Shown here in pieces: positions 42,860 through 46,796 of a stretch of DNA of 64,000 nucleotides. Source of the stretch: an uncultured Bacteroidales bacterium (GTDB lineage Bacteria > Bacteroidota > Bacteroidia > Bacteroidales > Bacteroidaceae); the NCBI GenBank assembly GCA_902772585.1, contig CACYBB010000018.1, forward strand, positions 363 to 64,362, written 5' to 3'. The notes beneath the pieces are model-generated. The model ran no database searches, was not told where the DNA came from, and saw only the letters and a list, made by a program, of their open reading frames with translations. The translations under genes and the position numbers were made by a program. The number at the start of each line of letters is the position of its first letter. Within the stretch, counting starts at the first letter, position 1.

Positions 42860-43020
42860 GCTGCGAAGTTACGAATAATTCATCAATTCTGCAAGTATCA
42901 TAGCGAAAAGGACAAAAAAGGACTTGCGGTAATACTGTTTATATGCTAATTTTGCGATAATTGTAAAAAAAATCGGCTCACAATGTTGCAACTTTCAGAA
43001 ATATTGCTTATATTTGCGGT

Positions 43021-43275
43021 GTCGTATAGAAATAGACGACTACATCGAGGAGAGCGATTAAGCTTTGACCCGTCTGAGAACCTGGAAAATTCGAAGTATA
43101 AGGGTGAGAAGTCTGAAAGCTGTTTCTCCTGCAGTAGCATATATACTGCCCTCTCCGCTATGGAGTTGGCTCACATATATACCTGCAGGTGTGAGCTGAT
43201 TTCATTCTTACTTATACGGGTATTCCAGGACCTTCAGACTAAGGATGTCGAGAAGGCTCACACTCTTTGTACGTA
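43021..43275 (+). ncRNA. Large structured leader RNA with long-range stems and pseudoknot potential
   Basis: Promoter TATATTTG at 43009; nested GTCTGA/TCAGAC, CCTGGAA/TTCCAGG, GTATAAG/CTTATAC; crossing ACATC/GATGT and GAGC/GCTC. Confidence 0.65.
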
Positions 43276-43308
43276 AATGAATACCTATTAACTTAAAAAC
43301 ATAGTAAC

Positions 43309-44001
43309 ATGAACAATCCTTGGTTAAACATTTCATGGAATAACACGATTGCCGATGTTGATAAACCATACATTGTTGAGAAATACGGATCTGTAGAAGC
43401 TTTTGAGAAAAAGTATAAATCGGTTGGTCTCAGTTTTCAACATTGCCTGCCTGATCCTTATTCTGGAAATGTAAACAGCAAAGTATATTGCCTCAACAAG
43501 AATCCAGGCGTACCTGATAAGTGTTTTATTGGTGATGTCGATTTTGAAAAGGCTACAAAAGAGAATCTTGAACTTAAGCAAACAACCTGTTTTTGGGCAG
43601 AGAATATTAAAAACAAATGTGGAAAAGTTCATGATGGTATAGAGTGGCTAAAAAAAAGAACTCGTAAATTAGAAACAATTCTTAACCGTCGTCCGAATTT
43701 ATTCTTTGTAGAATACTTCCCATATCATTCTTCTTCTGGGTTCGACTTCCCTTGCAATCTTCCTTCTTATACATTTACTGACAATCTTATTGCACAGGCG
43801 ATGAAAGAAGATAAAATGATTATTATTATGAGAGAGAAAGGAAAATGGATTAAGAGAATTCCTGACATGGAGTCTTATTCCAATCTATTCTGTCTGAAGT
43901 GTGCCCAAGGAGGTTATCTTACTCCTAACAATATTGTAAGATATTGTAAGGGAAATGAAGGGTCGAATATTACCGAAAGTGAGATTAAACAATTCTTTTA
44001 A
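43309..44001 (+). CDS. Uracil-DNA-glycosylase-superfamily-like protein
   Basis: LPDPYSGN..YCLNKNPG and FVEYFPYHS motifs. Confidence 0.55.
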   Translation: MNNPWLNISWNNTIADVDKPYIVEKYGSVEAFEKKYKSVGLSFQHCLPDPYSGNVNSKVYCLNKNPGVPDKCFIGDVDFEKATKENLELKQTTCFWAENIKNKCGKVHDGIEWLKKRTRKLETILNRRPNLFFVEYFPYHSSSGFDFPCNLPSYTFTDNLIAQAMKEDKMIIIMREKGKWIKRIPDMESYSNLFCLKCAQGGYLTPNNIVRYCKGNEGSNITESEIKQFF

Positions 44002-44018
44002 CTGATAACAAAATATAA

Positions 44019-44053
44019 AAGGAGCGTGCCGAAAATCCTTAGAAGAGTAGGCA
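44019..44053 (+). ncRNA. Small pseudoknot-forming intergenic motif, copy 1
   Basis: AAGGA-GCG-TGCC-GAAAA-TCCTT-AGAAG-AGTA-GGCA; 33/34 identical to 46001-46034. Confidence 0.65.
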
Positions 44054-44070
44054 ATTAAAACGTAAATAAA

Positions 44071-44772
44071 ATGAAAAAGTTTTTTCCCCAGTTGGTACTT
44101 GTAGTAATTACTCTTATGTTACCGCTAAACAATTATGCTCAAACAGATGCGACCATCGATAATGCAATGAAAATGACAAAAGGTGGTAGGTTTATTGATA
44201 CGAATTATAAGGTAACAAAACCTTTATTTGGTGCTATCCTAAATGGGAAGAATTTTCCATTAGATGAATCCAAATGTAAAGTTACATTTGAAATCGTTAA
44301 TTTCGGGAATGAAGGAAATACAGTTATTATAACATTTGATATTGGTGATGGAGAAGTTTATTCATATTCTTGGTCTGGAACAAACCTACATGTAGCTCCT
44401 GCGTATGACAGCGGAATGGGACATTTAGCCGTAGTAAGAGGTAATAATACTGCTTGTGGCGCTTTATCAACAATGAAAGGAAAGTGGGTAGTTACGATAA
44501 ACACGGGTTCTGATACATACACCATCAGTGATATCAAAAAAGGTATGACACGTGCCGAAATAGAAACTAAAACCAAAGAGCTTGGTCTTAGCCAGTTCAA
44601 GTTTAATGGAAATAGTGGGAAGTTAAAAGTTTACTCCCTTCTTTGGCTAGACCAAAAGAAAGTTTATAACTATTTTGGTGATTATCATTATCAACTGAGA
44701 AATGATAAAAAGTATGGTGATTTTTATTTTGATGACCAAGGGAAATTAGTCAAATGGTTACTTTATATGTAA
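44071..44772 (+). CDS. Secreted hypothetical protein
   Basis: Signal peptide; IKKGMTRAEIE (SmpA/BLIP-like) motif. Confidence 0.75.
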   Translation: MKKFFPQLVLVVITLMLPLNNYAQTDATIDNAMKMTKGGRFIDTNYKVTKPLFGAILNGKNFPLDESKCKVTFEIVNFGNEGNTVIITFDIGDGEVYSYSWSGTNLHVAPAYDSGMGHLAVVRGNNTACGALSTMKGKWVVTINTGSDTYTISDIKKGMTRAEIETKTKELGLSQFKFNGNSGKLKVYSLLWLDQKKVYNYFGDYHYQLRNDKKYGDFYFDDQGKLVKWLLYM

Positions 44773-44813
44773 TTTCATTTTTGCCTATCCAATAGTAAAA
44801 CTATATGTATAAA

Positions 44814-44870
44814 AAGCGAGTGATTATAGTTCATAAAGTTACGATTGCTTATATTAATTGGAAGTAATCA
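44814..44870 (+). ncRNA. Variant of the pseudoknot motif with compensatory changes
   Basis: AAGC-GAG-TGAT..GCTT..AGTA-ATCA. Confidence 0.4.
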
Positions 44871-44971
44871 TTTATACTCTGAGCGAAATATACATAATAT
44901 ATAATAATGAGACTTATGATGTAAATAGGCCCACTTCATATAGTCTTAACTTGTGGCCGACTAGAACAGTT

Positions 44972-45271
44972 ATGGAGAATCAAGAACAAGCACAGGATTC
45001 TTTTGTGATGAAGCCAGACAACCATATGGCTTTGGCGATTTTTACAACAATTTGTTGTTGCCTTCCATTGGGAATTGTTGCAATAATTAAGGCAAACAGT
45101 GTAGACTCTCTCTATATAGGGAAGCAATATACTGCAGCTATAATGGCTGCCAATGAGGCAAAGAAATGGAGCTATTGGGGAATTTTCTCAAGTTTAATAA
45201 TCTGGATAATTTATCTTCTTTTCTTTGGTGGTATTGCGGTCTTGGGCGGAATTATGGCTTTACATGGATAA
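44972..45271 (+). CDS. CD225/dispanin (IFITM-like) membrane protein
   Basis: KPDNHMALAIFTTICCCLPLGIVAII..A..A..AKKW motif; ATG 44972. Confidence 0.88.
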   Translation: MENQEQAQDSFVMKPDNHMALAIFTTICCCLPLGIVAIIKANSVDSLYIGKQYTAAIMAANEAKKWSYWGIFSSLIIWIIYLLFFGGIAVLGGIMALHG

Positions 45272-45643
45272 ATGAAAAAAATGACATTTGTCATATTTCT
45301 TGTAGTATTAGGTGGGATTCTCTTATACAATCTCAATCCCACTCAATATTGGTTTATGCCAAAATGTCCTTTCAAACTGATAACAGGGCTAAACTGTCCA
45401 GGATGTGGTATACAAAGAGCTATTTATGCTCTAATGCATGGGGAGATAAAAGAAGCGATACATTATAACTATTATCTTCTTTATTCAGGTCCTTATGCAG
45501 CATCTTTCCTCTTGGTGTGGTTGTTGCCTCAAAACAGTTTCCGAGGTAAACTTAAAAGTATAATAGAAAATAAACATGTTGTAGATTTCTATATAGTAAC
45601 TTTTTTGATGTGGTTAGTCATTAGAAACATTTTTAACTTGTAA
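45272..45643 (+). CDS. DUF2752 membrane protein
   Basis: CPFKLITGLNCPGCGIQRA motif. Confidence 0.88.
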   Translation: MKKMTFVIFLVVLGGILLYNLNPTQYWFMPKCPFKLITGLNCPGCGIQRAIYALMHGEIKEAIHYNYYLLYSGPYAASFLLVWLLPQNSFRGKLKSIIENKHVVDFYIVTFLMWLVIRNIFNL

Positions 45644-45646
45644 CAT

Positions 45647-45976
45647 ATGGATATAAATCAAGCAAATCAATTATTGGCTCTTTACGGAAATCGTCTTCCT
45701 ATTGAGTCTATGGAAATGGCAAAAAACAAATTGCTAAGTATGGACCATAGTGTCGCTTCAATTCGTATGGCGCAGTTCAAAGATCCTACAATGGCATTAA
45801 TATTATCCGTGATTGTAGGTCCTTTAGGAGTTGACAGATTCTATATTGGTGATGTCGGGTTGGGAGTCGGAAAACTCTTAACTTGTGGTGGTGCCTACAT
45901 TTGGTGGTTAATCGATCTCTTTATGATTCAAGATGCAACCAAAAAGAAAAACTTGGAATTATTGCTAATGTTTTGA
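45647..45976 (+). CDS. TM2 domain protein
   Basis: LGVDRFYIG..GKLLTCGG..WWLIDLF motif. Confidence 0.9.
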   Translation: MDINQANQLLALYGNRLPIESMEMAKNKLLSMDHSVASIRMAQFKDPTMALILSVIVGPLGVDRFYIGDVGLGVGKLLTCGGAYIWWLIDLFMIQDATKKKNLELLLMF

Positions 45977-46000
45977 CCTTTATTAATTATTGCAAATCAA

Positions 46001-46035
46001 AAGGAGTGTGCCGAAAATCCTTAGAAGAGTAGGCT
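46001..46035 (+). ncRNA. Small pseudoknot-forming intergenic motif, copy 2
   Basis: AAGGA-GTG-TGCC-GAAAA-TCCTT-AGAAG-AGTA-GGC. Confidence 0.65.
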
Positions 46036-46043
46036 TTTATATA

Positions 46044-46796
46044 ATGAAAACAATTATGAGAAAATGTATTTTTTGTTGTATTGTAATGATGACAATACTG
46101 TTAACGTCATGTGGAAATTCAACGGCTCAAAAAATAGTGGATGCTTATGAAGATGCTACTAGTCAAATGGATGAAGCAAGTGATGATGACGAGTGTGTTC
46201 AAATTCATTCGGACTTGATGGACAATCTGTGCGACATTGTAGAGGCTGATCCTGAGTTCTTAGAAAAAGCTGAAAAAGGAGATCTCAGTAAGTCTGATAT
46301 CAAACAGATTGAGGCTGCATATAAAAAATACACGAATAAGTTACAAGAAAAAGTCTCTTCGGATCGTTATGCTTTCATGCCATTTGCAAGTCTAAAGAAT
46401 ATTAAAAATAAGATCAAAAAAGAAAATCAAAGCGATAGGACTTCTTTTGATGATGACACAGACGATAATTTAGATTCAGACGATGATTTAGAAGAAGATA
46501 ATTTAGATTCAGACGATGATTCAGATGGAGATGAAATGTCTTCAACTAGTTCGGAAGACTGGGACGAACTATTAGAATCTTATGAAGAATATGTTGACAA
46601 ATACATTTCTTATCTTAAGAAAGCATCAAAGGGTGACATGGATGCATTATCAGAATACCCTGCGTTATTGGAAAAAGCACAAGAGTTTAACGAGAAGATG
46701 CAAAATGCCCAAGGTGTAATGTCTTCATCTCAATGGTCTAGATATATTAAAATTACAAATAAAATGACAAAAGCTGCTCAAGAAATGAGCAACTAG
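46044..46796 (+). CDS. Lipoprotein with acidic linker and helical C-terminal domain (DUF6591-like)
   Basis: Lipobox LTSC; DWDELLESYEEYVDKYI motif; start 46044 or 46056. Confidence 0.75.
   Translation: MKTIMRKCIFCCIVMMTILLTSCGNSTAQKIVDAYEDATSQMDEASDDDECVQIHSDLMDNLCDIVEADPEFLEKAEKGDLSKSDIKQIEAAYKKYTNKLQEKVSSDRYAFMPFASLKNIKNKIKKENQSDRTSFDDDTDDNLDSDDDLEEDNLDSDDDSDGDEMSSTSSEDWDELLESYEEYVDKYISYLKKASKGDMDALSEYPALLEKAQEFNEKMQNAQGVMSSSQWSRYIKITNKMTKAAQEMSN

Follow-up and report, generated by a model that had tools for sequence, protein, structure and literature searches.

The 64,000-nucleotide (nt) stretch of DNA analysed here (the window) comes from an uncultured Bacteroidales bacterium (contig CACYBB010000018.1, from an assembly of 2.86 Mb and 48.8% GC) and carries, at positions 43009-46796, an array of six co-oriented genes headed by an RNA leader. 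The leader is an uncatalogued RNA with two states, absent from Rfam and present across Bacteroidales. We put at about one half the probability that the locus is a platform for the regulated expression of exchangeable accessory genes, controlled by attenuation through a choice between two promoters, P1 and P2. A second, upstream promoter with a translated frame probably switches the leader's transcription stop off. The system is real; its parts are partly known and its proposed control layer is new. Positions are those of the window, features lie on its forward strand unless stated otherwise, and L-numbers denote homologous loci compared with it.

A leader RNA with two mutually exclusive folds

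An earlier note, made from the sequence alone, had placed a promoter at 43009 and a structured leader behind it. A Bacteroidota −7 box is indeed found at 43009-43016 (the proximal promoter, P2) and is kept in nearly all homologues, and the leader itself (43020-43270, ~250 nt) has a minimum free energy z-score of −3.35. Its first fold is a rod that pairs 43072-43092 with 43218-43239. Double changes occur in 15 of the 32 rod pairs, a count reached by none of 500 shuffles, and the top mutual-information pairs have z-scores of 11-18 (48 sequences). The rod core is retained with compensations in 17 of 18 folded distant copies, and its invariant internal loops resemble a binding site.

The second fold is a terminator-like hairpin in which strand delta (43188-43208) pairs with strand gamma (43242-43264), followed by a U-rich tail. 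Within Prevotellaceae 99% of delta:gamma cells are paired, the changes being mostly of the G-U type; order-wide, in distant copies, 13 of the 15 pairs carry double changes in an alignment fitted by the model. Delta is common to both folds, so that rod and hairpin are mutually exclusive. The leader thus has one defining feature of an intrinsic-termination attenuator, an antiterminator and a terminator that exclude one another and are both conserved, with the order-wide conservation of the hairpin depending on that fitted alignment. A pseudoknot drawn within the leader by the note (43052/43256) fares less well: 75-98% of it is paired, but double changes are lacking and the support for a local hairpin is just as good.

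No Rfam family was found over the leader at E<10, in the window region or in 58 homologous loci. A covariance model of the hairpin places the family in 38 of 150 genomes of the host's own family and in 18 other Bacteroidales families. Leader relatives come from Prevotella, Segatella and other Prevotellaceae/Bacteroidaceae, in habitats that include the rumen and the human gut. The leader was not found in ~117 genomes outside Bacteroidales, and plasmid and phage records gave no match; IMG/VR gave two. Distant copies end in a clear poly-U run and have a co-oriented gene within 150 nt in 38 of 44 cases. Our literature search, in which the supplements of PMC8040213 were covered for 200 of 408 files, found no paper on the leader or on the function of the DUF805 RNA.

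That transcripts end at the hairpin in vivo is best supported by BTnc169, a small RNA (sRNA) candidate of Bacteroides thetaiotaomicron. Differential RNA sequencing (dRNA-seq) gives it a length of 235 nt from a mapped transcription start site (TSS), with no processing site listed (PMC7366714). BTnc169 is a homologue of the leader (30.3 bits, against 4.2 for the best of 500 shuffles), and by its published coordinates its 3′ end falls in the U-tail of a leader-type hairpin (PMC7366714). Because this homologue ends at the hairpin, attenuation is supported. BTnc262 has, by eye, the same architecture; the two are listed in that study as intergenic sRNA candidates only, without family, structure or mechanism. 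The note had proposed a motif at each non-coupled junction of the array and RNA elements acting as antitermination, processing or translation signals. A transcription-termination role is supported for the leader; a motif at every junction is not.

The upstream module and a proposed promoter choice

The note's single promoter could not be upheld. A second −7 box, predicted at 42947-42954 (P1), had been overlooked, together with a conserved module of its own. This module (kinase gene, helix-turn-helix (HTH) gene, repeat box, P1, a site termed alpha and an ATG) precedes ~60% of Prevotellaceae leader copies. Alpha (42970-42982) is the complement of delta, the 5′ strand of the terminator, and stands directly before the ATG; it is 10-13 nt long, and in 50 of 85 loci its distance to the P2 box downstream is a constant 35 nt. 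P1 is conserved in 41 of 51 alpha loci. In L241, which has no leader, the P1 box sits directly before the cargo gene and is predicted to drive it. Alpha and delta covary, with 537 of 560 cells paired and 15 double changes against 4.3 in shuffles (0 of 2000, relatedness not being controlled), and triple alpha-delta-gamma changes are seen in L191 and L320. In a transcript from P1 the fold containing alpha:delta (−88.2 kcal/mol) lies within 1.4 kcal/mol of the rod (−89.6 kcal/mol).

The ATG, directly after alpha in 47 of 50 loci, opens a 97-codon upstream open reading frame (ORF; 42983-43276) that spans the leader and would be translatable only from P1. Its context is A-rich, with A at −3 in 41 of the 47 and at −12/−13 in 43-45; Bacteroidota start codons have an A-rich context with A at −3 (PMC6847099). 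The frame is open to delta, through the shared leader, in 32 of 50 alpha loci versus 2 of 35 loci without alpha. Losses of the module are scattered over the tree (13 changes). A function for the encoded peptide was considered and rejected, there being no clear codon-position bias. In L109 (764-2149) the ORF and the first cargo gene form one continuous frame of 461 amino acids (aa), possibly through a frameshift. A distant subgroup (L315, L318, L319 and L320) keeps alpha and the ATG, with an ORF of only ~15-20 codons that ends near the leader start.

Two candidate regulators belong to the module. The first is a membrane-spanning Hanks-type Ser/Thr kinase (41122-42300; Pfam Pkinase, E 6e-27), a candidate sensor with intact catalytic motifs, one transmembrane helix and a variable C-terminal outer domain, for which five unrelated families are found among homologues. 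Of 58 leader loci, 30 have it upstream, and in 28 it forms a convergent pair with the HTH gene. In L070/L071 the upstream kinase has 810 aa and its outer domain resembles surface proteins of its own cargo array. The second is an XRE/Cro-like HTH protein (42293-42859, reverse strand), a candidate regulator divergent from the array. Its model has a predicted local distance difference test (pLDDT) score of 72.7 and its matches to XRE folds are weak (Z about 5); the fold search assigned no fold to its beta-rich C-terminal domain. In L143, L160 and L240 the first cargo gene is apparently a second, longer HTH paralogue, a possible feedback loop.

The candidate operator is a direct-repeat box (AAWGGAM twice, 10 bp apart; 42906-42923) that is tied to the HTH gene. 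When loci are chosen by the HTH gene alone, 16 of 30 carry it, versus 25 of 2688 (0.9%) control upstream regions, and the leader is present in 13 of those 16. Among alpha loci the box is found in 40 of 50, versus 3 of 34 others, and it is single copy in its own genome.

These parts suggest the following chain. Transcripts from P2 would be untranslated across the leader and would largely stop at the hairpin. A surface signal would activate the kinase, which would act on the HTH protein at the repeat box and turn P1 on. Transcripts from P1 would carry alpha and the upstream ORF, and their leader would be translated; a ribosome trailing the polymerase through delta would prevent delta from pairing with gamma, no terminator would form and the cargo would be transcribed. 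If alpha paired with delta, be it in cis or in trans from terminated P2 RNA, the ORF start would be covered, which might provide damping and a threshold. Both the direction of control and the signal are what we infer. Tentatively, the whole may form an undescribed Bacteroidales circuit, in which a transmembrane kinase and an XRE-like regulator choose the tandem promoter, an antisense site and a translated leader set an RNA switch, and exchangeable arrays of envelope and anti-phage genes come on upon attack or contact.

Several observations weigh against control by promoter choice. The module is missing from 35 of 85 Prevotellaceae loci, and the frame is closed in 18 of 50 module loci. The link between frame and module comes down to only four well-supported independent pairs on the tree (about three in the same direction, none opposite, p 0.25) and is therefore suggestive, not proven. 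In the window the U-tail is a weak one, with 5 U in 8 as the typical count. The rod is also more stable than the terminator by ~9 kcal/mol at equilibrium, so that termination would require kinetic effects, a protein or an RNA acting in trans. Finally, the sign of control could be reversed, because a ribosome on the 5′ rod strand alone would favour termination.

To our knowledge, little has been established about how acquired envelope and defence genes of low GC are turned on in Bacteroidales, or about the targets of most Hanks-type kinases in these bacteria. The locus offers a specific chain of events, open to testing, that would lead from a sensor at the surface to an RNA switch; the locus is present in the human commensal Segatella copri, and its RNA part, as BTnc169, in the model species B. 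thetaiotaomicron. It would extend the control logic of phage P4 to chromosomal accessory arrays.

Related systems and alternative readings

In phage P4, PLL/eta combines tandem promoters with a translated upstream frame that overrides termination, a layout like the one proposed for the leader locus. As in P4 immunity and in C4 of phages P1 and P7, the leader locus has a central strand (delta) complementary to an upstream site (alpha) and a downstream site (gamma); the CI RNA of P4 pairs with upstream seqA and downstream seqC, giving premature transcription termination (PMC4825925). Unlike those systems, the leader has no sequence or Rfam similarity to them, and C4-type models match neither the window nor the 58 loci. 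It heads chromosomal accessory arrays and is not a phage immunity system, the two IMG/VR matches being its only ones among the phage or plasmid collections searched; its hairpin is of the intrinsic type, and control is apparently exerted by a Ser/Thr kinase and an XRE-like protein. The leader locus works like the P4 system but is not a member of it. With trpL-type attenuators and terminator riboswitches it shares a mutually exclusive antiterminator and terminator between which ribosome position could decide. Unlike the trpL type, its ORF has ~100 codons, contains no regulatory codon run and is present on one of the two transcripts only. Unlike terminator riboswitches, the leader has no known aptamer.

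The strongest alternative, which we nevertheless consider unlikely, is that the leader acts on its own as a two-state attenuator or antiterminator, switched by a protein or ligand. The HTH protein would then regulate the promoter, alpha would be a DNA site and the open frame a functionless inheritance. Against this reading stand the covariation of alpha with delta 215 nt away, its tolerance of G-U type changes, and the conserved ATG and A-rich start context. In the window's clade, moreover, the frame is closed in 10 of 10 alpha-less rows and open in 23 of 28 alpha rows. In favour of it are the binding-site appearance of the invariant rod loops, the absence of alpha from 35 of 85 Prevotellaceae loci and from most distant copies, and the few independent pairs behind the frame link.

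An improbable reading is that the leader is mainly a precursor, cleaved within the rod by an enzyme such as RNase III, whose small RNA product pairs in trans with alpha and gamma on new transcripts and forces termination in the manner of P4 CI RNA. BTnc169 is listed as extending all the way from its TSS to the hairpin, without a processing site, and no C4/CI family match was found, even though the order alpha-delta-gamma equals that of seqA-seqB-seqC (PMC4825925) and the rod is a long imperfect duplex. Such a product would explain termination despite the stable rod.

Beyond the leader, the note had described a pseudoknot-forming motif at each non-coupled junction (44019, 44814 and 46001). The copies at 44019-44053 (40.8 bits) and 46001-46035 (38.6 bits) exceed the gathering score (35.6) of the Rfam DUF805b RNA (RF02914, clan CL00115) and are members of that family, with no difference from it. 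Both pseudoknot stems show double changes among 40 copies. The motif is not tied to the leader: a leader lies within 1.5 kb in only 1 of 29 DUF805b loci picked without regard to it, and DUF805b, found in 55 of 101 relatives across the order, is far more widespread. Most junctions lack the motif, which occurs in a minority of arrays. Its distance to the next ATG is fixed, with a median of 19 nt. In a distant family (L294, 1389-1457) the leader hairpin is followed, after 44 nt, by the related DUF805 motif (RF03081).

The third supposed copy, at 44814, was rejected. It has no Rfam match at E<10, a folding z-score of −1.09 that is no better than shuffles, and, in 300 genus genomes, only two partial matches, both weak (27-41 nt, E 5e-4 to 7e-4); in L232 its inner stem is broken, while the 20-codon ORF containing it is kept. 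This ORF (44805-44867), a remnant or small peptide, has equal length in L232 and L234. A conserved 31-nt element (44928-44958) lies 11-13 nt before CD225 start codons (L210, L094, L175, L232, L234) and is seen only there; its pattern was found in none of 300 order genomes, but is too strict to match the window itself.

The comparison of loci supports a modular platform whose cargo can be exchanged, as the note proposed. Leader homologues precede variable low-GC arrays, in which 171 cargo genes behind 87 non-redundant leaders fall into 81 families. In L202 the match to the window runs from the kinase onwards and breaks off 5 nt beyond the first DUF805b copy, where a different gene follows; L203-L208 match from the promoter to the stop codon of gene 2 and then end. 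Other joins coincide with the promoter, with a stop codon or with the leader tail. DUF805b hence marks some exchanges, not all, because L202 breaks there but L203-L208, L232 and L175 join elsewhere. We suggest that DUF805b would be a per-gene 5′ element, ~19 nt before start codons, that may also supply shared short homology for cargo exchange. In L068 (5161-9629) a leader array contains an ATP-grasp peptide cluster of the microviridin/grasp-with-spasm type behind a DUF805b copy.

The array resembles the rAID-1 arrays of Bacteroidales (bioRxiv 10.1101/471110), which are likewise low-GC, co-oriented and variable with repeated intergenic motifs. Its six AT-rich co-oriented genes, described as such by the note, have 32-38% GC against 48.8% for the genome and fall within the rAID-1 definition of at least two co-oriented genes with GC of at most 41%. 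Unlike rAID-1, the window holds no 5′ XerD-like recombinase, and the cargo consists of envelope and anti-phage-like genes, not of toxin-immunity genes. An integron has an integrase with attI and an attC at each cassette, a combination not found here. That DUF805b or the leader would act, integron-like, as DNA recombination sites for a dedicated recombinase encoded elsewhere is very unlikely. The likeness to rAID-1, the L202 breakpoint and the recurrence of the same genes behind DUF805b with different upstream neighbours would suit such sites, but 1 of 56 loci has an integrase of any kind in the 3 kb upstream, the motif is missing from most junctions, other joins fall outside it and its distance to start codons is fixed. 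The attC-like sites with a linked recombinase that the note entertained are thus unsupported; it was right that the window has no integrase, the nearest tyrosine recombinase lying ~18 kb downstream of the array and outside the window. Least credible is an invertible promoter, with alpha and delta as its DNA inverted repeats and phase variation of P2 as the outcome: such promoters are common in Bacteroidales and P2 is flanked by 13-bp inverted repeats, but 85 of 85 loci are collinear with no flipped allele seen, the repeats have G-U type mismatches and no recombinase is linked.

Cargo genes and surroundings

Gene 1 (43309-44001) encodes a probable member of the uracil-DNA glycosylase (UDG) superfamily, by profile and fold search a distant relative of anti-phage Brig1, and stands first behind the leader in 8 of 8 loci (one with a partial leader only). 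The note's UDG-like assignment is supported by the fold search. The model has a pLDDT of 96 and its top 8 of 48,161 chains are UDG-type, but with Z of only 5.0-6.6; root-mean-square deviations are 3.6-4.3 over 133-163 residues, Foldseek was not significant and a sequence search of the PDB gave no match. Like the Brig1/Brig2 anti-phage DNA glycosylases (PMC11078745; 10.1101/2025.10.29.685425), gene 1 probably has a UDG-like fold, and it matches the Brig1 profile weakly (NF047634, E 3e-5). Unlike Brig1, it scores 23.6 bits versus a cut-off of 230. UDG-like defence genes are known cassette cargo (PMC11078745; 10.1101/2025.10.29.685425). PADLOC matched none of the six window genes.

Gene 2 (44071-44772) encodes a secreted protein of no known family, with a signal-like N-terminus and no Pfam match; a homologue lies behind DUF805b in L109. 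The CD225-DUF2752-TM2 membrane-protein block (44972-45976) moves as a unit and stands directly behind the leader in L175, L232 and L212. The last gene (46044-46796) encodes a DUF6591-like lipoprotein with homologues behind DUF805b in L145, L211, L112 and L125. Pfam matches confirm the note's assignments of CD225, DUF2752, TM2 and DUF6591.

Its view of the cargo as anti-phage or envelope genes stands in part. The 171 cargo genes have a median GC of 38%, and 78 have a signal-like N-terminus; a cargo of mainly defence genes is not found, ~7 of 79 family representatives matching PADLOC. The recognisably defensive minority comprises methyl-directed restriction enzymes, UzuA (Uzume-like), PDC-S26/S31 and Brig1-like glycosylases, and with many unknowns beside them the leader is a search handle for candidate defence genes. 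A fixed chromosomal site for the array was rejected: relatives carry other genes beside the downstream DUF3857 gene.

The array is closed by a strong palindrome (46845-46883, no strand assigned), a likely terminator, within a segment (46790-46900) that has a folding z-score of −6.1. It is a multi-copy genomic repeat with copies on six contigs; with a second short multi-copy palindrome (47420-47510) it recurs near 51480-52030 and on other contigs. Between them, 47110-47400 is a large palindromic repeat, like a miniature inverted-repeat transposable element (MITE) or a repetitive extragenic palindrome (REP), with copies at 83-95% identity on eight or more contigs of the genome, and 51550-51850 is an element similar-looking to it. 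Upstream of the kinase, 40158-40787 encodes a stand-alone protein with a weak match to a CdiA C-terminal toxin domain (E 8e-6).

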